In this document: one piece after another, positions 6,001 through 64,000 of the stretch | Position numbering within the stretch: the stretch's first letter is position 1 | How the letters are laid out: every line of letters starts with the position of its first letter | Source: Catajapyx aquilonaris | Taxonomy: Eukaryota | Direction: 5' to 3' | DNA: 64,000 nt | NCBI GenBank assembly: GCA_000934665.2 | Contig: KZ537968.1 | Location: 62,001 to 126,000, forward strand | Position numbers and translations under genes: made by a program | Notes under the pieces: generated by a model | The model's input: the letters and a program-made list of their open reading frames with translations, nothing else | The model's database searches: none | What the model was told of the DNA's origin: nothing

Positions 6001-6931
6001 AGTGTTCAGGGGAACTGACCAGTGACTTGGCCGATATCCCACCGCTTAACCTGGTTTTGAGCCATTTGCACATCGCTCTACGGGATTTTCCAAGCCCGTT
6101 ATCAAATTGGACACGGTCTGGCAGAAATGAGATGGGGGATATGACCATTGCCAATGTGTGACGTCAGGGTAATAATCATGTGCTCAAGGCAGGGTTGATA
6201 TTGCATTAAGTTATGCAATATTTAGTATTTGTTTCGACACATCCATTACTAGTGGTTATTGGCTTAATTTCGCATTACAAACATGTAATGATACTGACCC
6301 ACAGAAAATGTAATGCCTTACGAAAATGATATCACTGCCTAATTTTTTGAGCAGCATGTACAGTACTATATCGCTCAAAAAGATAGAGACGAATTTTAAT
6401 TTGGCTTCAATGCAAAATCGTTATCTTTTTGAGTACCTTGAAGTGCATTTGGTTGAAACACTTTCAACTCAGTACCAACAAAAATTACAGCGATTTTTGA
6501 CTAATATTAGTGAGACAAAAATATTTTGTTGAGCGATAGTAGAAAAGTGTATCAGATTGGGCATAAATTAATTGAGAGACGGACATTATCACTATATTCT
6601 CGTTAGAAAATGTTCACTCGATGTCACTTGCTAATGAAGTCATCATGTGCTCACTTGTCAGGTGTTGAGAAATCTTCGCGAATGTTTCACAATGAGGCAT
6701 AGGGGAAACGAGCTGGTTGTATCAACCGGGAATATATTCCAATTAGCAGTTGTATGCATATATAGTCAAATAATAAGGGTTGGCTACTTTTTTATGGTCC
6801 GGATTAACACAGGGGATTACAAAGGTTGCTTCGGTGGTCAATTAAAACTTCATTACTTATTCAGACAGTTCTTTCTCTCGCTTTTTCATTTGCGCCTCAC
6901 TAATTCTGTCATGTTTTTATCTCTCTTTCAG

Positions 6932-36669: not shown

Positions 36670-38661
36670 TTTCCCAGTGTTATTAAGACTATTAGTGGAT
36701 ATATCAGGTATATTTTGATTGTAGTTATTGTAATATTTTATATCACAATAGTAATACTGGTGCCTAATAATGTAAGTGCATCAACTATACAAAAATACAA
36801 ATTGCAGTTGAGACTTTTCGTGCTACTAATAAAGCATTGTCAGTCTTATAAAATTTACCGCCAATCGGCTCTCAGGAGAACATACTACTTTTATAATTAC
36901 GTGACAATAGATTTTGTGTCAGAATTATTCAAGGAGGACTTGCAATATGGATTCTGAACGATGTACTGTACACCTTCAATACTGATGTAATAGAGGTGAT
37001 GTAGAATCGTTACGCAAGAAACTACTTTTCAGGATTCGGAAGTGTTTCGGTTACATGGTGCATAATATTATTTCAATTAAATTTAACTGAAGTGTCATTA
37101 AATGTGGAATTTTATATGGGGCTCTGAATCCCTCACAGTCAGTAATTTCACTTGTTAATTTAAAAGGCTTGTCAGGAGAGACCAATCAGACAAATTCCCA
37201 TCAACATGTGAACATTCAGTGCATTCTAAACTGAAAACCTGACAAAATAATGCTCAAATAATTAGGGCGTGGAAGGGGTGTGAGTCGTGAAAAAATCACG
37301 TTACATCGCAGGAAATGGAAGTACAGTGCAAAATATCTGATTTATTAACATGTGAGCTGTAAATGAAGTAGTGGTAACAAACATGCCATAATATACAGCG
37401 GTTTTCTGCAGTTTTTTTCAAACTTTTGGGAGACATGGATTCCGTCAGCAGTGTTTTTGTAGATATATCAGAGGAGTCCGGTCTATTGCTTGAAGATCCT
37501 CTCACATATAACAAAATTGCACAAAAGGATATGGACCCATCTTGAGGCAGTTTAATATAAAAGGAATCGTAGTTTTCCCCTTTATCCTACACATTAGGCA
37601 AACCCCCTGCTCAGGGGAGGCTTGCTGCGTGGCCTTGAGCATTGCAGTACGGTGTAATTATGTATACAGTATTTTTTGGACCACGCCATCCGATTTTTTA
37701 AGCTTGACCAGTCACCAGAGGATTCATTATATATACGGGTACTGGTCGTACGAGGTGGCCAGGTGGATTGTATCTGGTCATCGCTGGTAACTCCATAATC
37801 TTGGGGAAATACTGTGATTGTATGTATATGTATGTGCATATCCTCCTGAGACCTGATGTCCAATATATTGGACATCAGAAAAAAATTTGGCGTCAATTTC
37901 AGTTGACGCCCTTTTTCCACACACAGTTTGGAGATAGACCAAAGTCAAGATTTGACCCTCGCTTACATGCCAGTGAATACTGAAAACCTGGCCTCCCGGT
38001 TCATAATGAATCTTTAAGACTAAATGGACTTTACCCGGCGATATAGCAGAAAAATACTACTCGGAGTGATGTAAATAACTCAAACCATCAAAACTTCACT
38101 TGCACGTTAGTGGATTTCACTTGTTTATGATAATTATGATGTTGCGATAGGTCCTCTCACCAATGGTTACGTCTTAAATGACATCCAACCCTGCATAGTT
38201 GTGTTTATTTGTGCATAACTCAACCCAACATCATAATAATTATTTACATGACCTTAATGAGATAATTACATTTTTCACGCATCCATTATCCTGTCTATTC
38301 AGAGCAACCCATGTGCCTTTCTTGCGCAACGGGACGGCCTAATTTCAGGATATATTAGGGAATATTTGTCCTTCCGTTCACATCCTTTATGTTGGACTGT
38401 CCCGCAGTGTAAGAGAGACACAAGGGTTGCTCTGAATAGCCAGGATAAAAGATGTTGGGACACCCCCAGCAGGTCTTGCCAAAATGATTCCCTACCAGTG
38501 GGGAAGACCCCAGCTCTGTAAAGGTGATGGACAATACTGAAACCATTTACAATGAATGTGTACAACCGAAAATAACTGGCGACAGAAGTGAAACAAAAGC
38601 TAGAAACTCTAACAGCTTACGATGTTCAGAACTTCTTTGAACAATATAATATTATTCGTCT

Positions 38662-39155
38662 CTACACCATGAGTTTTCTCTTGCATACCTTAAGCAATAC
38701 GAAGGTAATCAGAATGAATATCCCCGTCCACGTAATAGTAATTGCATACCCTGGCCAGACATCGGCTTTGAGAGGGCTCCATCCCCTGATGAGCATGCTC
38801 CTCGAGGATTCAGTGGCCCATGTGGTTGGGAAGGCCAGACAAAACCTTCGCAGCCAGTGTTGGGCTATGCCTTCCAGAGGCCACATTGTGCTGCTCAGTA
38901 TGATTGCTGGGTACACCCACGTAAACACAAGAGGGACCAGTATGTATATGTCCTCTGCTATCAATGAGAGCACGTATCCGGCGCACATTCCGCAGCCAGC
39001 TTGCAGTGACACCAAGATCGAAAACCATATGAAGGAAAATGACAGTTCAAATCTCTGGTAGAAGTACATGACTACGAGCATTCCTGCCAGTTGAACTCCG
39101 AATATGAAGTACTGGACAGCCGTTTGTGCTAGGAACATCTTCGTTTCATTGATTC
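38662..39155 (-). CDS. ABCH: ABCH last exon (TM helices)
   Basis: [16 protein letters not shown]...[18 protein letters not shown]; stop at 38662-38664. Confidence 0.92.
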
Positions 39156-42100
39156 CTGGAAGAGGTCACGGGAGTTTGGGAGGTTAGACACATGTAAATA
39201 ATAATTGAATATTACTTGTTATTCAAAGTTTACAAAGTAATAATTCTTCTGTTTTAACATTATTTTCATAGGTATTTGTAAAGTGAACCTTACCAGCAAC
39301 GAAACTTCTTTGGAGCACACCGTCTTTCCTCTCCAAAACAAGTAGACCAGCCGAGAAGCCAATGGATATTGCAAATACAATGCTGCAACCCGAAAAATTG
39401 TAGTACATAGTATAAAACAGTGTTTTATGAAAATGCGAGCATTTGGAACTACTGAATCAAGTGTAGCCTTTCATGGAGGTGTAGTACAGTTAGGTCTAAA
39501 CATGGAGATACAAAATACATGTCAGACTAATACAGCTGTAACTTACCAAATAAACATTCCAGGAGCCATAAATTCTTGGAAGTTAGGCTGGTTGATGCCA
39601 AATATTGCATCTCCAAATTTTACGGGTGTTGGTCCTATCAGGTTTTCAGCTTTACACACACTAAACAGATCCTTCATGAATTGTAGAAAGCGTTGAAGCA
39701 TCATATGTTGCACTGTAAATCCAATTTGCTGATCTAAAAGGAAAATGATCATGGCTGAAATATGTTGCATTGAAAATTCAAATTGTTTTTTCCCCCTCAC
39801 TCTTCGATCATTATTCGATTTGACAGTATTGTCATAGCTTACAGAAACTTATGCAAAAAGGAAGTCATGCAGAAAATGTTGCTCTTAAGTTTCAAAAGAA
39901 CGCCCTCCTTTCCAGTACAGTTTTGGAACTAACTCGAAATCGGATACATACCGGTACATGTATTTTACTGAAACTATATTATTATATTATATTATTTTGT
40001 AAAGGGCATTTCCCCCTGGTTGAAAGTCAGGGTTTTGAAGACTAATAATACCGTAGTAATAACTTAGCAGGATAATTTCAAACATTCTCACAGACACAAA
40101 TGTGCCATATTTAGGATTTTTGGCACCCGCTATTCATAATTACATTTGTTAACTACAGGGTGGTCAAATCGCAATCAAATAATAAATATTTTGAAACAGT
40201 ATTGAATACTAATTCCCCCCATGAACATGAAAATGCACTTACTAGACATATCCATGCGAATGGTAGATATGGAGTTATACAATGTGTCGTTGTCAGCATC
40301 TCTACCTTTCTTCAGTCGTTCAATCAAGTTTTCAGAATAGTTATAGGGAAAGGACAACATTCCCCAAGCCTCCCCAGTTCTAATGGCTTCCACAGCTGAT
40401 GCTTCATTATGATGCGGAACCTTATAGAAAGCACAGAATTAATTATTAACTTATTGCTCATTCTGATTTAGGCAGGTAATGTTGGAAACATCACATACAT
40501 TTCCGAACATATCGTTGATCACTAACCAGATTAACGATGCTGTGGTCCAATGCTTGAAGGTAACCACAGCTGAGATTTCGATGACCACACGGGTCGTAGT
40601 TCTGGCAGACTGGCTCTGATGGCAACTCGTTGTTGACCACTGCAATTGTGATTTTCGCCGGATCATTACCAATAAATGTGGCGAACATTAGCATTACGGC
40701 AGGTGGGAGAAAGAAGAACAGAATCATCGCCCTGAAATTAGACCATATTGATATCAGAATTCTTGGTCAAAGGAATAATAGGTATAATAATTATTATAAT
40801 AACTAATATAGGTTACAGCTATACAATTAATTGATTTTACAAGGGAGTCCTTTTCATTGCTACTTTCATTTGAGAATTGTTGAAAGTTATTGTTTCGTTA
40901 TACTTACTTCCACATTCTGAAAAGGCGTTTGCGATACTTGTATAGCAACGCATCCATGTGATTCGACCAAGATGATGGCTTGCAAACTGCCTGCGTCTCA
41001 TTCACGTGGTTCCCATTTTGACGCACTTGGAGCGACTTCTGCTCATCTGAGACTTCATTGGAAGTGTTTCGGAAGTCTCTAACGTCCATGCCCTCGTCCT
41101 TGAGGCACAACTTCAAAAACACCTCCTCCATATTGCTGCCCATGAACTTGGTCAGGAGATTCTTCGGGGAGTCCTCCTCCAGAAGATGTCCGCTTCTCAT
41201 CATTCCCACCGTGTCGGCCAGGCGAGCTTCATCGATGTAGTGGGTGGTAAACAGCACTGTCGTGTTCATTTCGGACGAGATCTGGCGCATGTACTTCCAA
41301 ATACTGCATGATCAGAGCAAATTGTTATTCCAACGCTGACCTTTCCATTATGCTATACTGTCCAATGGCCTACTTTTGACGAAGAAGCGGATCCAGTCCA
41401 ACAGTGGGTTCGTCCAAAACCAAAAATTCAGCTTGATGAAAAAGAGCAATCGCCAAGGAAACTCTTCTTTGCTGCCCTCCACTAAAAATGTTGGATATGT
41501 ACTCAAAAACGACATTAACTATTAGTTATGGGTCAATGCTACGATGTAATTAATTAGTTGTTGTTGTTCCATTTTAATGAATGGTAGAGCTGTACATTTT
41601 GCTGACGCTCATTTTACGTAACATGGTTCTAAAAATAACACGTACTGTAGCACAAAATAATGACTACTGAATATGTCATTACCCTGCAATTGCAAAGGTG
41701 CAAGGGTTTTTTTTTTTAATTAAAAAAATTCCCCTTCGCTCTCATCATGCAATGGTTAATTACCTGCAATATATTTAGTTCAATGTGTGATGCATATACG
41801 TTGTTTATGACCACCTCGCTGTCCTTGGAATTTTCTCGGAAAAATTTTGTTATATAAAAGACTTGCACCTACACATGTGTGAAATCTGTATTCTGTATAG
41901 CACTTGGTAATAAAAATGTGAGCTGCAGTAATTAAGAAAGAGTTTGGTTACTCTACTGCGGAGATGTTACACTGTATAGAGTGCAATACTTTACTCAAGA
42001 GAACTATCTGATAAGAACGAGAGGAGTATAATAGTTTCATGTGACACTGACCTGCCATGCTTGGGGGGGCCTACCTGAGCGTGTGAATGACCCTGCTGGC

Positions 42101-42797
42101 TCTTGGTAGCTGCAGCAGCCTCACTAAATACGCAACCTGCAATTTCATCTGGTCGCGAGTCATTCCGTGAATGAGGCCAAAGTACACCAGCATTTCTTCT
42201 ATGGAGCAGTCCAAGTACATGCCCAAGTCTTGAGGCATGTAGCCCACCCTTCTGCCAGGAACACACGCCTCCTTGCTTCCAGGACTGTGCCCAAAAACAC
42301 GGATCTCTCCAAGGTCCAACTGGCGAAGGCCAAGAATACACTGAAGAATAGTGGTCTTTCCGCATCCACTGGCCCCCAACAAGGAGTATCTGCAATATTT
42401 TCACTTACTATAGTGAACATTTGGAAGGTTGCTTTAGAAAAGCCTCAACACTATTAGCCATTATTAGGATTAATAATACTTTTCAAGAATATATTCTAAT
42501 AAAGTAAGTTATCACTTGGAAATGTACAAGGTATTTCATAAAATACTACTGATGTCACATGCTTTTGCTTGTTAGCTACCATTGTTGACAGTTATTATTT
42601 GCGACGCATGAGTACTATTCTATGAATGCATTACGCCTGGATGTTACTTACATAGTTCCTTGTTTTACGGTCATATTCATGTTGTGTAGTGTAGGGCATG
42701 AGTTGCTTCCTCTGCCGTAAGTTTTGAATGCTTTTCGAACAGTTACTGCATAAGGTAATTGATGTAACTCGGAAACGTTGACGTCAATCTCTTCCAT
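38662..42797 (-). CDS. ABCH: ABC transporter subfamily H half-transporter (NBD-TMD; often annotated ABCG23-like), 9 exons, 705 aa
   Basis: Exons 42797-42652, 42389-42075, 41481-41374, 41303-40908, 40731-40527, 40420-40243, 39733-39547, 39382-39294, 39155-38662. GT-AG introns, consistent phases, 2118 nt. Motifs: [22 protein letters not shown] (Walker A), GYMPQ (Q-loop), [10 protein letters not shown] (signature), [12 protein letters not shown] (Walker B/D-loop), TTHYIDEA (H-loop), then an ABC2-type membrane domain with a large extracellular loop. This layout is typical of arthropod ABCH. Confidence 0.93.
39294..39382 (-). CDS. ABCH: ABCH exon 8
   Basis: [30 protein letters not shown]. Confidence 0.9.
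39547..39733 (-). CDS. ABCH: ABCH exon 7
   Basis: NQQIG...[13 protein letters not shown]. Confidence 0.9.
40243..40420 (-). CDS. ABCH: ABCH exon 6 (extracellular loop)
   Basis: [21 protein letters not shown]...IRMDMS. Confidence 0.9.
40527..40731 (-). CDS. ABCH: ABCH exon 5 (TM1, start of extracellular loop)
   Basis: [24 protein letters not shown]...LSCGYL. Confidence 0.9.
40908..41303 (-). CDS. ABCH: ABCH exon 4 (H-loop, linker)
   Basis: IWKYMRQ...TTHYIDEA; donor AA|GTAAGT. Confidence 0.92.
41374..41481 (-). CDS. ABCH: ABCH exon 3 (signature, Walker B)
   Basis: [36 protein letters not shown]. Confidence 0.93.
42075..42389 (-). CDS. ABCH: ABCH exon 2 (Walker A, Q-loop)
   Basis: Acceptor attgcag, donor AG|GTAGG. 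Confidence 0.93.
42652..42797 (-). CDS. ABCH: ABCH first coding exon (MEEIDVNV...[12 protein letters not shown]...NMTVKQGT)
   Basis: ACCATGG start context; donor AT|GTAAGT; missed by the ORF track. Confidence 0.88.
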
Positions 42798-43263
42798 GGT
42801 TGTGAGATCCTCCTGAAGTGATCAAGTTTATTCTGGAACGATTAAATGCAAGCGTGGCATAAATAGCATAGAAGCAGGTAACAAATTGAAATCACTTTTT
42901 ATGTGTAAAAAAACGAAGATATCGCTATTATTACAAAGCAAAACTCCTACACTGTACAAACTACATATTAAATATTCTTGCATACTCACATGGAAGAAAC
43001 CTTTCTTGCACGTCCAAGTAATCGTGTGGCCAGTTTGGTTCTGAGTCCCTTCTGATTCCAGAACTTGAAGTTGAGTAACTACAACAGCCTTGTCCTTGAG
43101 CACTGCGGTGAATGCCCAGAAGAACCTTTAATGAAAAGAAGAGAGGTCACAAATGACCTGGACATGTTTTTATAGAAGTAATTACGCACGCAATTTACTT
43201 CAAGCCATGTAGCTAAAAATACTAAATAACATGCTTACAAAGTTTCAAAATGGAAAATGGCTG

Positions 43264-43399
<136 letters not shown>

Positions 43400-44090
43400 T
43401 GTGATCAGGTTTTGCGCAGGAAAGTTTGATCACGTGCTTGGATGGAAGTGGATGGCCGTGGCCCCTTAAAAGAATATTTATGGCCCTTGGAGATCCGGAC
43501 CTAGGACAACATACGTTTTGCGCTGAAGTTCCATGCCCTGGCCTCGAAGGGTTTTCCCAACATTACATACGTTCATCACGCTCAAGGACGCAGAGATTAC
43601 TGTGACGCAGGTGTGAACTAATTACTCGGACTATTGCAATCTTCTGCTGAGATACTCTCATATAATATTACAATCAACATGTCAGTGTGTGCAAATATGC
43701 TGAGTATAAACTTACTTCAGATATTGTCTCGAGTTTGTTACTGATTGGTCAAGATGCCAGTAATAACAAGCAAAATGGTTAAGGCTAGCATGTATTTGTC
43801 ACTCTTCTCTTACCGAGAAGTTTGCAAATAGCATTTTTCTCAATGCGAGGTCATTTCATAAATAAATGTGGATTAGCAAAAAATGTTTTAAATGTGGACC
43901 TTGTGCGTTAATAAATTTGATGGCCTCGAGCAAAAATACTTTTCACCCGATTGAAGGACTAATGAAGTGAATTTTAAAAACTGCCTTATTGTCATTTACC
44001 ATACAGCATACCATGTCCTAGAGGTCATATGATGCATCTTAGGTTTATGGATATTTTTGTGGGCTTTAATTTAAGCAATAAAATCATTAC

Positions 44091-44269
44091 CTTCGTTAAG
44101 TTTTTCTCACTTTAGTGTCGGTTCACACATTATAATAAGGTTTTCTGAATCACAAAACCGAGCCGCAGCAACTGAATGTCTGTTTTTAAAACACGACACA
44201 CGAGAGTAGTGTTCAGTCCAGTTTCTACTGGTAAACAACAAGTTGGAACGTTGTAGGTTGGATTGCAAG
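44091..44269. promoter_or_regulatory. Putative divergent core promoters and non-coding first exons of ABCH (-) and the BTB gene (+)
   Basis: Inr-like TCAGTT on minus at 44175-44170 with donor AAG|GTAATG at 44090; Inr-like TCAGTC on plus at 44213-44218 with donor AAG|GTAAAC at 44270; both genes have an acceptor just before their ATG (42814-42813 and 44550-44551). Confidence 0.45.
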
Positions 44270-44552
44270 GTAAACTAGTGGAATGAATAATTAACAAGTG
44301 ATATCAGCAGTAGTTCTGCCTATGCATTTTCACAGAAGGCAACAAACTTTTTCTCGTGTAATGTGCAACGATGCAGTATTGTCATACAGTCAGTTCATAT
44401 AGGCAATGGAGCTGACGAAGCATGTTTATATTAAGCCTGGTGACCTTTGTTCCAACGGAAGTAAGATCCAAAAGTGCTGCGGGTCACACTTTGAGGCGAC
44501 GCATGTAGTAGTTGGTACGCGAGTTATGTTCATCTGAACCTTGTCTGTCAGA

Positions 44553-44638
44553 ATGTGGGCATTGTGTCTCATCCTGCTGCTTCTAATTTGTGAGGTACAA
44601 AACTACTGCTCTGCTGATATTGATACTTTTGGAGACGG
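44553..44638 (+). CDS. BTB gene exon 1, signal peptide MWALCLILLLLICEVQNYCSA-DIDTFGDG
   Basis: Hydrophobic core plus C-S-A cleavage motif; donor GG|GTAAGT. Confidence 0.7.
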
Positions 44639-47600
44639 GTAAGTCTGCCTATACCTTTACGAAAACTTCCATTTCAGGATCGTATTCCAGATAAATAACA
44701 TAACTTCACGCAATATACGAGTAGAAATGACTCAACATTTGTCAATAATTCAACTGGGATTACCGAAACGATTGCAACCACTGAAATCGGAGAAGTGGAG
44801 GAGAACATTCCATGGCAGATCAACACGACTTCTACCAGGTCTCGTCTGGAACATCTCCTAAAATCGGAGACATTCTCTGATGTCACTTTCCTTGTCGGAC
44901 CTGACAGGACGGAATTCCGCGTTAGTAACTTACTACAATTTTCAACGTAATCTGTTACTTAAGGTTTTTCACTGCAAGTTCACTGTTACTCGAAATCTTC
45001 TAGCTTATCTAGACAATCTAGAGTCTAGACTCAGATGAAAATACTTAGACCTAGATCAAAATTCAAATAAAAAGGTTAACAAGTCCATAAAACCTAGCGG
45101 CGTTTTTCTTATACTCGCAGTTATTCTCGTGTGAACAAGAGACCTTTATTAAACTGGAATATATTCCTTTGTTATTTCCTCCAGAACATGGATTATATGT
45201 ACCGGTAATCAGTACAAGAATCTATGAGTACAAGTACTACTAAATTGCATTATGTCAATTTTAGCCCTCATATAATTTTTTGTAAAACCCCGTGATAGGG
45301 CCCCCTCTTAGGGGGGGAGGGGGAGGTTCCCAAGGTAGGGAGCTCTTACTTAGTTTTTAGTCATTTCTGACCCTCTTAAATACCAGACCTTTTCTCTTGG
45401 CCCTGGGCAGAGAATGGAGTGCAAGTCTGCCCGGACATGTCGGGTGAAAAGCGGGAAAAGATCCGACCAAGCGAAGGTGTCAGGGACGGGATGTGAACCC
45501 CGGACCTCCCGCTTGGCTGGCCAGTAGTATAGCCACTAGACCACCATGCCCCCCTTTTAGCCCTCCTATAATCAAAGGTTATTATTACGCGTATTGCGCG
45601 ATTTTCTCCCCTTCACACAACTTCTACACGTTTACATGATCGTATATAGCGTTTCTTGGGTTTTACAATATTTCAACAAATTAATTACGGTAACTGAAAA
45701 TGAATATTATTGTTACAGGCTCACAGTTTGATTCTCTCCATGTCCAGTCCCGTCATGGAAAACGACCTCTATGACAATAATCAAAGGAGGAACACCAACA
45801 GTAGCATCCTTGAAATGTTTGACACAGATCCAGACATTTTTCAGCTGCTGCTCAGTTACGTCTACAAGGACGATGACGAAATGGCATCCAGCTATGAAGC
45901 ACAGGAATTGAGGAATTTGGCAATTAGATTGGAAATGAATCATTTGGCGGCAAAAACTTATCAAGTAAGTGAGCAGTGGAATAAGATACTCTCCAAATTG
46001 GGGCCAAAATACACCACCATAACATATTACCAGCAGTGGGATACAGTAGGCGCTTTCATTATCCAGTTTCTTCAGTTACTTTCGATTGATAAATATATGC
46101 CATTAAAATATGTGTTTAGGCGACTGCGATTGAGTATTAAAATCTTCATGATTATTTGTGCGTTTCAATGTGGCAATGTGCAAATTTAATGAATTTTCTG
46201 ACAGCGACATTAAAGATAATAGCAAGTCAGAAATTACGTAAGTATTCTGCATTTAGCCTGCAATAATTTCAAATGTAGTTTTGCGTAACAAGAGTGGGTT
46301 TTCAAAGTCACTGTTTTATTTTTGCCACTAACCTGCTTATTAGTATGGCTATATAATAAGAAACCGAAACTGAAAGCTCCTTATAAGAACAACTTTTATT
46401 TTCAGTACATCAGCAATAATCTAGACAATGGTAACGTCCTTCAGGTCATACGAAATGCAGCGGCATATTACGACACTCAGCTGGAAGGCTTATGCTTAAG
46501 GGTAAGGTCACAGTCATGCACACAATATTACACTATCCCAGTATCAATATCACACCACCAGTTGATACCCGCATTTTCTTAGGAGGTCTCAAAGTTTAAA
46601 ATTTAGAGAAGGTCTGGATCTTGGACACTAAAACCCTTATAAACGCTAAATGCAATACACATTTTGCAGCAACAAGAACACTGAACAATAAGGGCCGTGA
46701 TTTTTGTCTCTTTAAATTGGTTGCTGGAGTAAACAATCCAAACCTTTTCTCTTTAACTCAGGGCTTAGAACATCGTGTAGAGACAAACCAAAAGACAAAC
46801 TGCTGAAGTTTTAAGAAAATTAATAAACCAGACTGCAAATTATTATAATACGTATAGGTTATTTTATTCTAATACTTGCACATTTTCAGCATATCGACAA
46901 GTACGCCAGTGATGTCTTACATCACATAGATTTTTCCATTCTTCCCGAGAGTGTAATAATTAAAATCTCCTCCAGTCCGATATTAAACGCAACGGAAATC
47001 GATCTCTTCAAGGCCATTTTATACTGGTGAGGTTCGTAAGCCAAGTTTAAGTGTGAATACAGCATTAAATTGTATTTTTACAGGTCTAGGATGCAGAGTG
47101 TGCTAACCAATCAAACATTGGAAAGCATTCGGCAAGAATTAGCTCCTATCTTACCACTAATCAACTTTGACAAGATGACTCCGGAGGAATTTGTCAAAGT
47201 GGTTGTACCTGCAAGAGTCCTGAATGCCACAGAGACAAACAAACACCTTGGTTATTTTATCCAGCGATTCCTGCCTAAATCAACGACAAGCAATACCAGA
47301 GTGCAAGAGAAAATGTCAGCCCAAGCAGTTTGCAAACGATCTTTGGACTCGGATGTTTCTAGCTATCGGTCTTCTTCAACTCAGTCCCATATTATTGGTT
47401 TTCGAGCTAAGTGTACCGAAAGGTGTTTTCTTTCTGGCTTCAAAGTAACAGAGAGTTTTACTACGTACAGTTGGGGACTGTCCTATAAAGCGCTGCAATT
47501 AACTGCCACAATTGAGGATTTGAAAACATCAGAAGTATTGTTTCATTTCGAGTCATCTTTGACTCATCCATTTAAAGTAGTGATTGAGACACCTATAGAA

Positions 47601-47813
47601 ATGAAATCTGAAGACACTTATGTTATACGCTTAAATGTCGAAGCTTTTCAAGTGGCACGTGGCGATTACGGGTTTCAGTACTGTTCGCATTGCTTACAGA
47701 ATATTAGTTGTGATAATGATGCCGGTACTGTGCTAGAATTTATTGATTATCCGGAAGCTAAATTTACAAACTCTACTCATGGTTTGATTTCAGAACTTTA
47801 TTTTGTGCACTAA
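44553..47813 (+). CDS. BTB/POZ-BACK domain protein with PHR-like C-terminus (BTBD1/2/3/6-like) and predicted N-terminal signal peptide, 6 exons, 496 aa
   Basis: Exons 44553-44638, 44725-44920, 45719-45964, 46406-46501, 46890-47026, 47084-47813. BTB: WQ...FSDVTFLVG...FRAHSLILSMSSPV...FQLLLSYVY. BACK: LCLRHIDKYASDVL...F..L...LNATEIDLFKAILYW...ILPLINFDKMTPEEF. The C-terminal HGLISELYF resembles the PHR end motif GQIPELIF. The exon 1 to exon 2 junction is the least certain part. Confidence 0.85.
44725..44920 (+). CDS. BTB gene exon 2 (Thr/Asn-rich linker, start of BTB)
   Basis: Frame open from 44699 to the donor CGC|GTTAGT; 5' boundary inferred from phase (TAG at 44722-44724). Confidence 0.75.
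45277..45554 (-). mobile_element. tRNA-derived SINE in intron 2 of the BTB gene with 18-bp target-site duplication
   Basis: Head ggggggcatggTGGTCTAGTGG (A box) ... GGTTCACATCCC (B box); TTTTAGCCCTC(A/C)TATAAT at 45259-45276 and 45555-45572. Confidence 0.87.
45719..45964 (+). CDS. BTB gene exon 3 (BTB core)
   Basis: AHSLILSMSSPV...DPDIFQLLLSYVY; acceptor ttacag, donor CAA|GTAAGT. Confidence 0.9.
46406..46501 (+). CDS. BTB gene exon 4 (BTB-BACK junction)
   Basis: YISNNLDNGNVLQVIRNAAAYYDTQLEGLCLR; acceptor ttttcag, donor AGG|GTAAG. Confidence 0.87.
46890..47026 (+). CDS. BTB gene exon 5 (BACK)
   Basis: HIDKYASDVL...LNATEIDLFKAILYW; acceptor ttttcag, donor TG|GTGAG. Confidence 0.88.
47084..47813 (+). 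CDS. BTB gene last exon (end of BACK, PHR-like beta domain)
   Basis: Acceptor ttttacag; stop TAA 47811-47813; AATAAA near 48113. Confidence 0.88.
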
Positions 47814-50203
47814 ATAGTTGTGCACCATATGATTTCTCGACGCCACAGTAGACTACGCGGAATACGTAGGCTAAGTCATAAGATTGACGAGTTATACAAT
47901 AGGCCTATTATTATGCAGAATATTTTGTAGGCTACTACGTTTTCAATCAAAGTGTACTGGCATATTATTCAGCGTCAACATTCAGTATACAGATGATGCA
48001 AGAGATGATGATTAAGTGTGACATGATGTTATTTTCACGGACGTACAAGATAACATAACACGCTGTCCTATTATAGATCTTGAATATCGTGGAAAAGTGA
48101 ACCTAGTTGTGTAATAAAATGTAACAGAGTTATAAACACCTCTAAAGCCATGTTGCATATGCATTTATTTGCATATCTTTAACCAATTACGTATTTCCTG
48201 TATCAACTGCCACTTTAGTTACATTTGGGCAGATCCCAAACAATGACAGATAACAAGTATAATAATTATTTTGCTGCGCCTAAGTTACTACTATCTACGT
48301 GATATCCTCTTCAGACCCGAGAAGAATTGAATAAGGCAATGTCAGTTTCTATTGCATTTTCTGAACATTTCCCCCCCCCCAAAAAACGAGAATTTTTTTA
48401 TAGTTCTAAAATATTGACAAAAATTATGACAAACAACCAATGAGAACATGGGACCCAATATTGCTGCTACAAAAGCAGAACGGATGAAAGCTAATAAAAA
48501 ATGTAAATGCCACTTAATAACACTGTGCTCTATCCCCCAAACGATGTTTTTTTAAAATTCATTTGTGGAATTCATGGTAGCAATTCCTCTCAGAAGACAA
48601 TTAAAGATAAACTGCAATTATTTTTCAAGGCCAAAACTTCAGGTATGGGGATTGCTCCTTCTCTTCTTACCTCCTAGCATGGTACCTCGCTATTCTAGAT
48701 TTTAAAACTGAACTGTAGTGCAAAGCACACTTCCTTGTGGGGGTACAGGTAGTGTAGTGTACAGGTATAGGAGGCGACAGTATCAATAGTTGCCGCGGAA
48801 ATGTTTTTTAAAAAAACTTACGTATCCTACAGGATACTCCAGGTCCGAGGAGGCACAACAAACGAAAGTATACTGTTCATGATTAATGTCAAAAAAAATG
48901 TTAAACATGGAATAAGTCGCGGGATTTATTCCAAAATTGATCGTCACCAACATTTGATGTAACTAGTGCGTCATTACAGAACCCATGATATGAATACAAA
49001 ATACAAGGACATTTGGCATGGAGAAACTGCAGAGTGCGCATGTCAGAAATGGCACAGCAGGCTATGATTATTATTACTATGTAATTATCAGTACCTTTAG
49101 CTCTGGCTGCCGCGGGTCGATGTTCATTATTTTCAACAACTAAAGTGACCCATCAAAGTACAAACATTGGAAAATTTACTTGAACATGTTATTTTATTAT
49201 AGCCTATACTTACGTAGTATTAATATTGCATGCAATGGTTTTTCAGAGTCGGCTTGTGAAAAATCAAGATTATGCAATTCTGTAGTATTTCTCCAATGAA
49301 ATAACGGATACCGTATATTTTTGCGCACTGCAGCTTATAGTACAGTACTGGGAAAAGAAACGTGTGATCAAGCCTGGTGCTTTGAGTGGTCCAGCTTTTG
49401 CGGTGATCCTGCCAGTATGGCAACCCTTCACACACGACCAGTGTAATACACTGGCGTTGCAGGTTCTAATGTACAATAATCATGGAATTTCAAGCTGTAG
49501 GCTACAGTAGGCCTACACCAACTGACTTTGCAGCTACGTGGCAAACTCTATAAAAAGCTACTGTATACACGAAAATATTTATGCACGCCGTCATTATCAC
49601 AACAAAAAACACAGTGTTACATAAAACTGTACGTAAAACCAGCTCTCACATTTTGCATTCAAATCGGCTTATTAAAATTGTTCACGGTGCTCTCGACTAA
49701 AATATTTTGCTGTAAGTAACTTATGCATCGAAACAGATACTGGTGGAGCCTATTGCATAATGCTAACTTTTCAATTTTTATAATTTTTATATTAACATCG
49801 TTAATATTTATTTATGGTAGAGAGGCGCAATGTACCAGCAACAAAACCAGAGATGGATTACATACTGTCCTATACTGAATATTGCAGAAGAGCTTACAAA
49901 TTCCGATGGCATATTAAGATTTAGCACTAAATGTAAAAGTTGATTCAATGTGTCTGGATAATCCCCTGTCAAGACATTTCTGTATGATTTCATTAACCTT
50001 GCCATTTACAGGAATATTAAGGTTTTCCTTTAATCCAAAAGCCTGGAAGACTGCAGAAAACTCACATTATTACATGTATGTGGGAGGAGGACTTCATATT
50101 GTGGACATGGAAAGTAAAAAAAAGCCATTTGGTAGTAATTTAATACGGCTAAATACGGTACAGCAAAACATAATGCAGAATGACATACATAGCATTAGAA
50201 TTA

Positions 50204-52418
50204 TTATAATAAAAATGGAATGCGCTTCCTCCTAGGACGCATTTCAATGGCCAGCACAACACACCCGATTCCCAATCCAATGAGCCACATATAAAAAACC
50301 GACTCTAGTTTCTCAATATTTAAAAGACTCTCAGAATCACTTGATTTTCCCAAATTCTCATTCCTCTTCTTATAATACTGCCTAATGAAATTATGGTAAT
50401 TGACTGCCGATTCGATGTGATCCACTATGTTGCCAGCTAGTAAACCACCGTTCACTCTATTAACGTGATCGATCCACACGTTATCCCTCTGGTAGCAAGA
50501 GCCCGTAAAGGCACTGGCAATAACATAAGGAGCTAGGTTAAGTTGCAGCTCTCCCTTCTCGTCCAAGAAATTATTTTTCTCTCGACGGTACAGCACGTCT
50601 AATATTGCACATGCAAAGTCTTCTTTTAAGGCCTTATCCAAACACTCCTCAAGTGACGCAACTATTTCGGCTTCGTGCACAGCCTTGTGTTGAAAAGAAC
50701 CTTCTTCCGACTCGCCTGCAAATATAGAAAATGCCTGTACCTGCATAGCTGTAGATCCCCATCTAAATTTTGAGTCGAACACCAACTCTTCGGCAGTCAG
50801 AGGCAAATGCTCGGTCGGAGGAAACGTAATTAATGACACCAATTTGGTCTGATAACAACAAGTGATGATGAGTGCGAAGCAAAAAAATAATGCTAGAAAA
50901 ACTGGGACTGAATTATTCGAATCTAATGGGACTGATGGCTGCCCGATGAAAATACATGTTAAGGTTTTGGTTTTACTCCAGATATCGCCAACTTTCCTTT
51001 TGCGATTCCACTTTGTAGAATCGTGTCTGTAGTGCGCTTCTAATGAATGAATAATAGTGGCACAAATTATAACTGACACACACAAAACTATCCACATGTA
51101 GACACCGAATGGTTGCAATATCACGTACCATTTAATGTCCAGTCTGGGATGTCTGGTCACGATCATGACGTGCCAATTCATCATTGGGTAAGTCAAAGAA
51201 ACGGCCTTCATCGACACATCTGTGTAAACTATTAAAGTCAGCCCTTCCACATCACCGAAGACAACTGGTTTCATCATTCCTGCCAGACTTCCGTTTTCAG
51301 AGAACTCTGAAAAAGCCATCTCTGGTACTAACACGTCAAAAGTTAAGTTAAAGATGGATTCGTATAATAGCAAAAGTTCTTCCGTGTATGTAGTCGGAAG
51401 ATTCTTCTTCTTTCTCACTGCAGCACCTCTCAAATCGACTGGTTCAGGGTGACCCATGATGACTGTGCTGCCATTAGTATTGCGAGGTGCGTCTGGAAAC
51501 ACGAGATCCCTTGCCAAGAAGTTGTCGTTCAGATAGGTGACTGGAGGATTCACGTTGTCCTCTCCCAAAGCGGGCTTATCGGTACAGCAGTAGCACACGG
51601 TGTGCCACATCATCCTTCGCTGATCGTGATCGAATCTGGACAGCAGCTTTAGCTTCATTCCACGAGCAGTTTTCCCCAGAAGAAACTCCTCGATCCAATT
51701 CAGATCAATGCTGGTGTCGTATGTGTGAATGAAGAATGGGTCCTGCAGATGCCTGACCCTGAATGAGGCTGCGGAGTACATGATCAGCTCAGGTGTGGTC
51801 GATGCATTTGTAGCCAGGATCAGATTGAAGCTGCACTTTCCTCCAGGCCATATTTTGGATCTGAGTTCCGGAGGATGAGACCTGAAGGACAGGAGGTGCT
51901 CTCTCTTCCAAACCCAGGTGTAATCTTCCGGATTGAATGGAAAGGTGTCCATTCGGCTCATCACCAGTGGACGGTGTCTGATCCTCTGGTTCCAGATCAG
52001 AACTTCTTGCAGAGGTTTGCTTAGGATAGGGTGATCCAAGCCCAATCCAAAGGAGCAATCCGGAAAGTGCATTTCTATAATCTTGCGAAGTAGTGTTGCC
52101 AGATGATAATCTTCTGAATCAACTTCTTTAATTGCCGTGATTGCAATCGAATTTTCTCCTACCTGGAAGTACGCAGTGGGATATAATTTAATTTCGTGTG
52201 ATGTCTCTGCAACTACTTGACAGTTGACAATCATAAAAAAGTTTTATGTAGTTTGCTAGATAAAAAGATGTGAGTGTAGGTCATATAGATGAGGACAAAA
52301 TAATGTGGCCAATAGCTCAATGACATATTGTACCAGATGTTTTACATAGTGAACATATATTTACCTTCGACAATATATTCGGTGCGATCAACACCAGCAG
52401 GAGAAGCAATGCCAGCAT
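50204..52418 (-). CDS. Divergent ionotropic receptor (IR, variant iGluR family chemoreceptor), 2 exons, 670 aa
   Basis: Exon 1 52418-52365 (MLALLLLLVLIAPNILSK, donor AAG|GTAAAT) spliced in phase 0 to acceptor tacttccag at exon 2 52162-50204. iGluR topology: S1 (GSLAGMM...GDV...AVSLTYP...IVTRHP), M1 (LQPFGVYMWIVL), pore loop (IFIGQP), M3 (LIITCCYQTKLVSLITFP, equivalent to SYTANLAAFLT), S2, M4 (LNIEKLESVFYMWLIGLGIGCVVLAIE). Confidence 0.9.
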
Positions 52419-59600: not shown

Positions 59601-62600
59601 CAAACTCGTAAATATGACTGAGTGTGTCAAGGGACATGTCTAGTTCCTTGTTTAGGAAGTAAAATCTGCGCACCGCAATTAAAACGTGGAAACAACCGGC
59701 ATGACACTCCACTTCTGTCGCCTTGAGGTCGGCAAGGAAAAGTGCACAAAAGGCTCGAACCAAACCACGGATAGGCGATCACGGACAACCCTTTTTCTTG
59801 TGCCAACTTCCTCATGCACCGTCCTAGACCCACATGGGGACACTCAGCCAACGAAGGACTCTGCCTTCAAAATAAATTTAAATGGCGTAACGCAATGATG
59901 ACCACCATGCATTTATCACTGCTTTAGACTGACTTATAATACACACATGGCTCGTTTTTACTGCCAGTGAGTGACACGTAACGCGGACAATCTGGACACG
60001 CGACGGACCCCTCGGCAGGGAATCCGAATAGGCCATAAAAGTGACACAACTCTGTCCAGAGAGGTCCTTGCGTGACGTAACCTCGCCTGGAGCATGTAAA
60101 CACTGCCCGTTTTTACAAGGATGGACAGGTCGTAATATTTTTTTATAATTAAGCCGCGTTTTATAACGAATTCATGAAGGCTTTGGCATCAAGGAAAAGG
60201 AAAGGTAGCGCGACACGTGACCAGGTCGAAGAGTGTGTGTCCTCTCCCTCTGTGTGTCCATCCATCGGTGACGACTTGAAAAGGACTGACAATGGACTAT
60301 TCTTACGGTGTACAACTTGCTTGGGAAAAAGGACAAAACAGCAATCAAGGTGATCTGATGGCATTGGGTGAGAAACTGGAGAGGGGGTGATGTTCCCCCT
60401 TGCGTTGCACGTAGTACATGTGCCTCCAGATTAATGCTTGTCAGCCGAGGAAATGTTTATCTGGGCATGTTAAGCATTGTTCTCGAAGCATGAGCGTATA
60501 ACCTGCGAAGGCCTTTGGATCACGAGATGCGACCAACTCTAAGCACATCTTACGAATAATGACCCTCTTTGCCAGCATATATGATACACCGTATTACGTG
60601 AGGGTGGACTAAAGCACTACTCATTTGTTCGGGTGTGTTACTCATGTGAATGTAATTAGCACTAAATTTTATGTTATGGTTTTGGTAAGAGCACAGGTTA
60701 AGTATATCGCATGTTGGTTAGTATTGATGTTATCATGTAAGAAAGAGAAACTGCTCGGATTGGATAGGTTAGTAACTGATGTAATCTTAGGCACGCCATT
60801 TCAGTCACAAAGTTAGGATAGGTTTTGGAGTCCGAATGAAACAGAAATGATTTTGACCAGATATTTTACTACTACATAGTACCATAAGTTTTGAATCTGG
60901 CTGAATTTTTAAGTAGGGTGGGTCATGAGAAAAATACCATGAGTGTTGGTATCCCACCACAAAAGTTGAGTTAAAAAGTGGGCAGGGCTTTGATTATATC
61001 CTTATAACAGGTCAGTTTTCTCACGGCCTACCTGTGGTGTTACATGTACTATGCTATAGGAAAAGATTGGCATCAGCTTTGTAGCCTAATACCATTCAGG
61101 TATTATGGTAACCAAGGTTTATAACACCTGTTATTGTTTCAATGTTCCGGTCGCGGACACCTTTTGTATGCAAAATTTTTAAGCTATGCCTGCCGGAGGT
61201 ATTCACTTGTAAAGAATGCGGTTATTATTGCATCGAGGTATTGTTGCAATGTTTCTTCTTCATTGCGAATATAGCGTCTTCTCACGCACTGCAAAGAGGG
61301 TTGGGAAACATTACTGGTAAACTTGGGCAATACACCTTGACATCCTTAAAGTGTTCCTGCAACACGCTGTGACTCAAAATGATTTGTCCTTTGCAAAAAT
61401 TCAAGGCTTCTTCCGGAAGAGTTACGTGGTGCGATTGAAAGTAAATAACCTTCGCTCGCAAAAATGCCTGCTCCACATTTCCGTTCATACGTAATGTTCA
61501 GGGTTGAAAGAGTCTATTCCCCTCTTCTCCTTGTTTGCTGTTCCGACCATCTCTCCCACAACTCTTGACTTTGGAAGACTCCATTTTTCGACCTAGTTGC
61601 GGTCAGCCACCAGCACCTTTCAAGTTTTATTTTCTAACCATACGCACACAAGTCACATTATTATTGTGGAGAATCCCTTGCATTCAGCAGCCTCCCTGGA
61701 ATAAAAATCTTCAGCCAGCCAGCATCATCGGCGAAAGTTTGTTGCCCCCGATATGAAGCTCAGCCCCATTCGTCGGCAGGGGTTCCCTCAGGCAGACGTT
61801 CACTTTACGCTCGAGTGGATCACTCCTTCTTCACTCTAGTCTTCTTCTTTTTCCGACCCTTTTTGTTGAGTGTGACCGTCATGTTCAGAGAGTGACCGGT
61901 GCTGTGTGTGACCCACTCCACGTGACCGATCGGATGGGGTGGGCCATGGACTGGTGAGTTTTGTTTGGGTTTCAGGTGTAGGAGCCACTTCCCCACTTAT
62001 TTTGTCCTCCTTATGGGTTAGTGTGTGAGGAGTTTACTGTGACGATGATTTGGCATGAACGTCGTTCGCGTGCTGCATGATGTCGCGACCGATACGGTTG
62101 TCGAGAGGCCGAGGGTCGCAGTAAGACATCAATAATGAGGAGGTCTGCATAATGCCACCAATGGAGTTCAAATGGGGCGAAATTATTACGTCGTTACAAA
62201 AAATATGTGGGTATACCACATTATATCAATTTGTCATCTAACAACACAATTTTTCACAATGTTAATTATCAGCTCATTTCCTGCACTTTGAATTTTAAGA
62301 CACTGTTAAATGTTCCTCCAAGATAATTATCCCGTCGTGAGTCGAAGCCTGTGGGTGTGAAATACGAGTTGGCTTAATGCCTATAAAAGTCTGAGGCTCA
62401 GCATCCCAACTATGCTGCTCAGAGTCTCCTACATGCAGACCGAGCGACATTTCCTCTGGGCAAATCGGAAAAAGGAAATGACTTTGGGGAGGAGGACCGG
62501 TTCGCAAAACTCTCACGGACACTTTTTGCCTTGGTTCGTGAAGCAATCCCGTAAGACCTTCTGGTGAATGGGGGTGGACTGTCTTTTGCTCACAGACTAG

Positions 62601-64000
62601 TGATTGCAAGGCCGGTGGAAACATAATTGAATCACTTTTCTCGGTTACCATCTCGAGGGGCAATATACCCTGCCACTGGGAGTTTCATAATGATGCAAAC
62701 TTGGAGGAACTGGCCATCATGTAGGAACGTCATTTGGGTTCCGAAACACCCTGCAACTCACGATGAATATGTGCATGTGGTGCGTGCGTAAGATGTAATC
62801 GCAATCTGCCCCCGAGAGTGAGAACTGTATTATTGCAGTGTCACTGTACAAATGAAATGGGTATGTCGCTGCTGAATGATGGGTGGATGCTGCGGTTTGC
62901 GAGCGTGCTTTTGCGGTATAATGGCACGCCTTGTATGGGGCATATTCATGGTATCACGGTCGGACACAATTCGCGTAAATGTGGGGCAGGCTGAGATGTT
63001 TACAGTGATGTAAGGGCGACCGTGGGGATCAGAAAATTTGTTGAAAGTAACTACTTATTTTGTAGAAATGACCGTCGACGCTGCAGGAGGTTCGTAATGG
63101 GCAGAATTAAAGCAGTGACATAGTGCTTATCATAAAACTTATCATGTCATCGAATTTAAGGTTGCAAATGTTTCATTTGTATATGGTGATATCATCTGAA
63201 ATATACAGAAAAATATTATTGTGCCAAATTGGTGCAGCTACAATAACACCCATTTTCACGTGCATGTAGGCTATATGAAAAGCAAAGATCAATTGCTTGT
63301 TTTGCAGATATTTGTGCAAAATGGAATTATGATTACGGATTAAGTCCAAAGTCCATCCCCATTCAGTGTAAAATTAATATTGTAAACTATCTAATCAATT
63401 TACGTGTTGAATTTTAAATTTGAGTCAAGCATACAAAATATCATTGATCTCATCAAACCAATATTTTTCTCTCTCTCGTCTCCTGTTAAATTTTTATTTG
63501 TTACATGCAATTCTAGTAAAATGGCCATCACATCATATTATAGCAGCGTAAATGGCTTGCATGGCATTGCATGATAAGGTAAATATCCTGAGCATGACGA
63601 CAATATTTTCGTATGACGCGTTTCAATACCGGTACATGATGTTCACATATAACTGACAAAGTGCACGTCGTGACTTAAGCAACGCAGATTTCGTCACTAT
63701 AGCCCTTGAACAATCTCGACTGTCGGAAATGCTGATTAATAATTCCACGACGCATCGTTTTAAATGCCACTTGCAATACAGCATAGATTTTTGTTGGTCT
63801 CCAACCAGATCTTTTCTTCCTCTGTTTTTGTTTTAGAGCGACTCTCACTCTCTCACTCCATATGTAGAAGTTACTGCGCCTATAAATTCACCCAAACCGT
63901 TAATCACCAAGGGCAAACGACCCAAGTCACATACTGTTACAGTCCATGGCGCATGCAACCCACGTGTCCCTCTACATCCTCGCAACATAAGCACTCCTGG

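Follow-up and report, generated by a model that had tools for sequence, protein, structure and literature searches.

The 64,000-nucleotide stretch of Catajapyx aquilonaris DNA analyzed here (the window; G000:C19:62001-126000, in a genome of 285.6 Mb) contains a plus-strand gene for a divergent BTB-BACK-PHR (BBP) protein, whose first coding exon is predicted to encode a signal peptide. Our preferred reading, to which we assign a probability of about two in three, is that the product is a free secreted bivalent binder from a divergent BTB-BACK-PHR branch that gained this signal exon; that the protein enters the secretory pathway at all is predicted with more assurance, and we consider it likely. 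An initial annotation had proposed a secreted, lineage-specific family of this kind. The architecture, the lineage-restricted family and the signal-peptide exon on which it drew are supported by our analysis, but its arguments from glycosylation sequons, threonine content and cysteines turned out not to discriminate.

The gene model comprises six exons and 496 codons, with GT-AG introns in phases 2, 0, 0, 0, and 2. Its parts are as follows.

44176-44252, plus strand: possible alternative upstream exon of 25 codons, with no hydrophobic stretch and a weaker phase-2 donor; may be untranslated region (UTR) or chance.
44553-44638, plus strand: exon 1, predicted signal peptide (about residues 1-21) and short acidic segment, with a phase-2 donor at its end; from hydropathy and a same-phase signal-like exon in four paralogues; outside RNA contig cover.
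44639-44724, plus strand: intron 1, 86 nucleotides (nt), with weak in-frame acceptors at 44721 (GAG) and 44724 (TAG) and out-of-frame competitors at 44677 and 44690.
44725-44920, plus strand: exon 2, sequon-bearing linker and the N-terminal portion of the BTB domain; from tblastn to paralogues and a shared phase-0 intron position.
45719-45964, plus strand: exon 3, BTB core; Pfam PF00651, E 4.7e-10; 3' donor seen spliced.
46406-46501, plus strand: exon 4, 3-box and start of BACK; contig joint 45964/46406 and paralogue alignment.
46890-47026, plus strand: exon 5, BACK domain; weak Pfam BACK match, E 0.12; phase-2 intron kept in paralogues.
47084-47813, plus strand: exon 6, end of BACK and divergent PHR domain, stop codon at 47811-47813; from AlphaFold2/Foldseek and contig cover over 47155-48148.
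47814-48148, plus strand: likely 3' UTR, with AATAAA at 48113; the contig over 47155-48148 continues beyond the stop.

The initial annotation had seen that the BTB-encoding frame lacks a start of its own, and this is correct: an in-frame stop lies at 44696-44698, the 83-residue frame 44699-44950 holds no methionine, and the next in-frame methionine after exon 1 is residue 102, within the BTB domain. It had also joined this frame to an upstream exon through a strong phase-2 donor. That exon starts at ATG 44553, its donor after 44638 matches eight of nine consensus positions, and the join at TAG 44722-44724 is in frame, albeit at a weak acceptor; among the nine AG sites in 44660-44830, only the tandem pair 44721/44724 keeps the frame. 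On the plus strand, only three ATG-led phase-2 exon candidates end in 42000-44700, and the nearest is the hydrophobic one with the strong donor; one of the three overlaps an ABC exon on the other strand. Another hydrophobic candidate exon, 42622-42716, was dropped as antisense to an exon of the neighboring ABC transporter gene. Transcript data consisted of contigs of one sequencing run of unrecorded kind (X1). One contig skips 45965-46405 exactly (joint 45964/46406, GT..AG, no mismatches) and a second spans 47155-48148, past the stop, so the gene is transcribed and spliced; contig depth over it is low.

Judged from profile matches, alignment, and a predicted model, the domain order is BTB-BACK-PHR, as annotated and as the family is defined in passages of PMC1257465. 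Exon 3 matches BTB above the Pfam cut-off; exon 2 alone gave no Pfam match. A profile of nine paralogous BTB exons searched against the PDB placed the BTBD6 BTB domain (2vkp) first and SPOP next, and a single-sequence PDB search with exon 3 returned mainly spurious matches. The BACK domain is split over exons, and its Pfam matches fall below cut-off both in exon 5 and in paralogue C656 (E 0.0026); the region aligns continuously with the genome's own BTBD1/2 and BTBD3/6 orthologues (C753 and C334, respectively) and is helical in the predicted model. Exon 6 likewise matches Pfam PHR below cut-off (E 0.0087). Its AlphaFold2 model (pLDDT 76.6) retrieved PHR domains at all of Foldseek ranks 1 to 4 (E 4.7e-8 to 3e-6), led by the BTBD2 PHR domain 3no8, and the value for PHR clusters in the Atlas was 0.95.

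The signal call was made from hydropathy and the (-3,-1) pattern. By these measures exon 1 shows the features of classical secretion, an N-terminal hydrophobic signal with a predicted cleavage site and no other transmembrane (TM) helix in the protein: the 11-mer hydropathy mean reaches 3.51, the hydrophobic core spans only about 12 residues, and the (-3,-1) pattern falls at residues 19 to 21. There is no second hydrophobic helix (the best 19-residue Kyte-Doolittle mean past residue 30 is 1.05) and no KDEL-like end at the C terminus, from which release rather than retention would be expected. All of the initial counts were reproduced, namely 496 residues, 10 sequons, six cysteines in the C-terminal domain, and no further TM helix.

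The best support for the signal exon is comparative. Paralogues were found by single-exon searches on contigs C1992 (2), C3078, C656, C1054 (4), C6554, C6533, C2362, C823, C13352, and C12445, and the first coding exon could be read in 11 divergent genes, window gene included; left out of this count were C1054c (62481-63095), C823 and C12445 (first exon not found), and C13352 (only the 3' part of exon 1 on the contig). Five of the 11 (window, C1992a, C1992b, C3078, and C656) have an ATG-led hydrophobic exon of 80 to 101 nt whose phase-2 donor stands in frame before the BTB domain. In the other six (C1054a, b, and d, C6554, C6533, and C2362), the coding sequence begins within the BTB exon itself, at an in-frame ATG that follows a stop by 1 to 11 codons. 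The search for paralogues with the same arrangement, which the initial annotation had suggested, thus found four, 29 to 41% identical to the window protein, and introns 2 to 5 of the window gene lie at paralogue positions. In C656 (L038:3641-8272), the signal exon is followed by a low-complexity spacer of ~495 residues and an intronless BTB-BACK, with an ambiguous reading frame where an N interrupts a CCT repeat. Additional copies or haplotypes lie on C13352 and C12445 (85 to 95% identical over their best-matching stretches). The last exon of the signal-less C6533 (L021, about 6315-6724, oriented) is interrupted by an insertion with inverted-repeat-like ends, and similar text occurs on C4610.

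How often such an exon arises by chance was gauged with a filter (ATG, 62 to 122 nt, open, 11-mer hydropathy of at least 2.4, strong phase-2 donor) run over 429,340 strand-bases, comprising the window and 17 partly overlapping loci. It returned six matches, the window, C1992b, and C3078 exons and three background ones, so that the background amounts to about one per 140 kb, or P about 0.0035 per 500 nt. None of eight controls, taken from up to 3 kb ahead of the signal-less genes, gave a match. C1992a and C1992b share 90% identity in exon 1, compared to 70% in intron 1.

The Cul3-contact motif of the BTB fold carries the label "phi-x-E." Passages of PMC3597819 describe how the alpha3-beta4 loop of KLHL11 and SPOP engages Cul3, with Phe130/Met233 inserted and Glu132 forming bonds. 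In our alignment, the window protein has Asn and Arg at the positions of SPOP Met233 and KLHL11 Phe130/Glu132 and thus lacks the contact residues. They are lost in all five signal-bearing models, kept in C6533, C2362, and C334, and partly kept in C823 and C753. The loop sequence therefore suggests a loss of Cul3 binding, which may predate the signal.

A tree of 21 sequences and 416 columns joined the window gene with C1992a/b at an ultrafast bootstrap (UFBoot) support of 93, the loop-less genes at 74, and all divergent genes at 87. Constraining the signal-bearing genes to a clade with the canonical C753 (BTBD1/2) and C334 (BTBD3/6) was rejected by the approximately unbiased (AU) test (about 1e-9). 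A single clade of the five signal-bearing genes was not rejected (AU 0.215). Grouping with the TRAF_BTBD17 gene C4610, a comparison the initial annotation had proposed, was rejected by AU (0.002) but not by the Shimodaira-Hasegawa (SH) test (0.17), the C4610 model being partial. Alongside the paralogues and the chance estimate, the AU result adds to the support for the initial annotation's architecture, lineage-restricted family, and signal exon. These p values are rough, because the constrained topologies came from fast runs with 5000 replicates. Both a single gain of the signal with loss in C1054 and several independent gains may account for the pattern.

A number of observations weigh against a secreted product. 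At intron 1, the TAG acceptor is weak (4 of 12 pyrimidines), and an out-of-frame CAG at 44690 would make a 52-nt intron followed by an immediate stop; introns of 48 to 57 nt are present in gene models of this genome. Contig cover is zero over 43500-45169, which puts exons 1 and 2 and the junction 44638/44725 outside it. The filter was set post hoc, after the exons had been seen, and passes only three of the five signal exons, missing C656 (at 2.28) and, because of its stop, C1992a; when relaxed, it recovers four of five, flags one of the eight controls, and adds farther candidates for three genes. Signal exons are alike in sequence only within the C1992 pair, and there the nine changed codons of exon 1 comprise seven nonsynonymous changes and two synonymous ones, one of the seven being the stop at codon 22 of the C1992a exon. 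C3078 (L017:7868-7928) lacks exon 4, the 96-nt exon for the 3-box, an element needed by most Cul3 adaptors. The five signal-bearing genes are not monophyletic in the maximum likelihood tree. Finally, loop loss does not mark secretion, because the contact residues are also lost in all three modeled signal-less C1054 genes and because the canonical C753 lacks the Glu, which makes the loop an imperfect marker of Cul3 binding.

To these must be added the features that the initial annotation had read as support for secretion. Sequon count, Thr-rich linker, and cysteines fail to separate signal-bearing from signal-less relatives, and we rejected them as evidence. The 10 sequons exceed a shuffle mean of 4.8 (p=0.012), but the cytosolic-type BTBD1/2 orthologue C753 has eight (p=0.021), and the other four signal-bearing models have 6, 3, 3, and 7, none above shuffles (p 0.21 to 0.79). 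Nor did we retain a sequon that the window and C1992 proteins share at one loop position, since C753 carries one in that loop. Ser plus Thr make up 25% of the linker, compared to 13 to 35% in five signal-less N-terminal extensions. The six C-terminal-domain cysteines lie at 337, 364, 368, 454, 457, and 463; Cys337 recurs in the canonical BTBD1/2 and BTBD3/6 orthologues and Cys368 in most signal-less paralogues. A CxxC motif is present in all five signal-bearing models and in none of the three C1054 models, but also in the signal-less C6533.

Among known proteins, BTBD1/2/3/6 (the BBP family) share the domain order, with BTBD6 giving the best BTB profile match and BTBD2 the C-terminal fold. Relative to this family, the window protein is only 22 to 24% identical to its own-genome orthologues C753 and C334, and the gene has other intron positions, a predicted signal peptide, and a decayed Cul3-contact loop. 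In the passages available, Btbd6 is a nucleo-cytoplasmic Cul3 adaptor (bioRxiv 10.1101/575910) and silkworm BBP proteins are predicted to be cytosolic (PMC4033408). The canonical BTBD1/2, BTBD3/6, and TRAF_BTBD17 genes exist separately in the genome. The best functional analogue is LGALS3BP (90K, Mac-2BP, BTBD17B), a vertebrate gene whose product likewise has a signal peptide before a BTB-BACK scaffold. According to passages of PMC6026745 and PMC5015019, it is a secreted glycoprotein in which the BTB domain folds and forms the canonical homodimer. Intracellular activity, including Cul3 recruitment, is also reported in passages of the LGALS3BP literature, PMC5015019 among it, so part of a protein with a signal peptide may still reside in the cytosol. 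In the passages of PMC6026745, LGALS3BP has an SRCR domain, no PHR domain, and disulfides inside its BTB domain, whereas the window protein has a PHR domain and a Cys-free BTB domain; Pfam scans found no SRCR domain in it, and only a 36-residue linker separates signal and BTB. BTBD17, listed as extracellularly secreted in a human secretome (passages of PMC12890474), ends in a TRAF_BTBD17 domain, in place of which the window protein has the PHR fold. Genome-wide, PF23651 (TRAF_BTBD17) matches only C4610. The arthropod relative of BTBD17 is presumably Tango10-like. The window gene is neither BTBD17 nor LGALS3BP, and it probably converges on them. A tandem BBP-like expansion in one invertebrate lineage is likewise known from the BTBD6-like genes of deep-sea snails (passages of PMC7736800), and the strings "signal peptide" and "secret" are absent from that paper's main text.

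Protein database searches returned no close counterpart. A last-exon search among longer proteins scored none of 987 candidates, and a profile of nine last exons run over 1.84 billion representatives gave 23 matches, all above 1e-10; 14 of them were inspected by eye, and none of these opens with an obvious signal. With an exon-3 profile of the five signal-bearing genes, one of 2890 candidates reached E<=1e-12, a lepidopteran BTBD6. These blanks reflect poor lineage sampling as much as novelty. Searches of the open-access literature yielded neither a secreted BTB-BACK-PHR nor a signal-bearing MATH-BTB protein, although supplements (predicted secretomes, gene tables) could hold such genes.

We propose that a lineage-specific BTBD1/2/3/6-type branch gained a short signal-peptide exon, with a phase-2 intron before the old BTB exon. 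The product would be imported cotranslationally into the endoplasmic reticulum (ER), cleaved near residue 21, probably N-glycosylated, and then released from the cell. Outside it would have no access to Cul3, and its Cul3-contact loop has decayed. BTB homodimerization would most likely be kept, as in the extracellular BTB-BACK oligomerization scaffold of LGALS3BP, and the dimer would present two divergent PHR beta-sandwiches as a bivalent binder of extracellular ligands, for which matrix, cuticle, or microbial surfaces are our guess.

An ordinary cytosolic, divergent BTB-BACK-PHR protein would result if transcripts used another, signal-less first coding exon (e.g., 44176-44252 spliced to 44725) and the hydrophobic exon were UTR or chance. 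Such a phase-2 candidate does exist, six divergent paralogues do start at an in-frame ATG without a signal, and the silkworm BBP proteins are predicted to be cytosolic; however, the 44176-44252 donor is weaker and 470 nt further away, and the signal-exon arrangement recurs in four paralogues against a low chance rate, and we give this explanation little credence. The same upstream exon could instead lead into the hydrophobic one, through an acceptor-like CAG that has its last base at 44551, 2 nt ahead of the ATG, and whose phase agrees with the donor of 44176-44252. The 25 added codons include basic residues, and cleavage of the signal is predicted by pattern only, so the protein might keep an uncleaved type II anchor or else be retained in the ER or Golgi lumen, within the secretory pathway but not free. 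We regard this as unlikely, given a (-3,-1) site at residues 19 to 21, a hydrophobic core no longer than about 12 residues, a C terminus with no KDEL-like end, and paralogue models that show no such N-terminal extension.

The gene may also be a decaying duplicate in a fast birth-and-death family, transcribed but unproductively spliced or functionless. The out-of-frame acceptor at 44690, the low contig depth, and the lesions in relatives (the exon-1 stop of C1992a, the missing exon 4 of C3078, and an altered exon-1 donor in the partial copy C13352) would fit such a fate. Against it, all six window exons are open over 496 codons, introns 2 to 5 sit where the paralogues have them, a spliced contig exists, and 9 of the 12 exon-3 differences between C1992a and C1992b fall at third positions, which makes decay a poor bet. 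Membership in the known secreted BTBD17/LGALS3BP lineage is very improbable and largely refuted: both are secreted BTB-BACK proteins and SH does not reject the grouping, but the C-terminal fold is that of PHR and neither TRAF_BTBD17 nor SRCR, C4610 holds the one TRAF_BTBD17 match of the genome, and AU rejects the grouping, albeit in fast constrained searches that used a partial model for C4610. The free secreted binder thus remains our preferred reading.

As a further point in favor of a secreted product, a second family of Cul3 adaptors in the same genome appears to show the same switch, here without splicing. Contig C295:66000-111367 (L065-L069) carries a tandem MATH(-BTB) array, in which 10 of 11 MATH matches fall in open frames that begin, without any need for splicing, with a methionine followed by a hydrophobic stretch (11-mer at least 2.3). 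Three further such open reading frames (ORFs) lie between these matches, bringing those with a signal-like start to 13, and an edge gene near 68750 has no such start. On 11 other contigs, a signal-like start was found in 1 of 43 distinct BTB ORFs (44 rows), and four had loose upstream candidates; C1465 and the ten others were accordingly ruled out as the site of a signal-bearing MATH array. Across the genome, BTB matches number at least 150, from a search in which 150 of 346 candidates scored, and MATH matches at least 105. Mostly intronless MATH-BTB and BTB-kelch-like genes form a very large genome-wide expansion, in tandem arrays.

The surroundings of the BTB gene in the window include the following features.

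About 11000-32100, plus strand: dual oxidase gene.
38600-42830, minus strand: multi-exon ABC transporter gene, head-to-head with the BTB gene.
43235-43400: compound trinucleotide repeat of CAT runs followed by TAT runs, in the interval that separates the BTB gene from the ABC gene.
50204-52243, minus strand: intronless ORF of 679 codons that has a ligand-gated ion channel domain; probably a divergent ionotropic receptor.

The best named matches of the dual oxidase are 74 to 77% identical (ostracods, dragonfly, crayfish, and cockroach), and a tree built from 37 of the 120 listed proteins places a 96%-identical relative as the sister of winged insects (supports 0.76 to 0.99), which makes the animal probably a wingless hexapod of an early branch. 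Within intron 2 of the BTB gene, 45316-45555 is a repeated element to which many divergent contigs map. Its minus strand opens with tRNA-like A- and B-box motifs, and it is probably a SINE; copies occur at C753 (83%) and at C1054 (69%). ARAGORN called no tRNA genes in the 64-kb window.

BTB-BACK-PHR proteins are described as intracellular adaptors in the literature passages available, which do not establish the ligand class of the PHR domain, and a secreted branch would surprise a BTB specialist. The window gene would be a variant of a known family that converged on a known kind of secreted protein, with a proposed function. A secreted branch standing beside signal-less sisters in one genome would amount to a natural experiment in which an intracellular scaffold was externalized by gaining one exon. 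Such a branch also bears on the order in which Cul3 contact was lost and the protein moved outside; here, some sisters without a signal have lost the loop as well. The parallel MATH-BTB switch suggests that evolution has taken this kind of route to new extracellular binders more than once. It is a tentative idea, and one that we doubt on balance, that at least two unrelated Cul3-adaptor families, BTB-BACK-PHR and SPOP-type MATH-BTB, moved to the secretory pathway in this wingless-hexapod-like lineage, where their recognition domains would have been reused as diversified extracellular dimeric binders, an antibody- or lectin-like repertoire convergent on vertebrate LGALS3BP.

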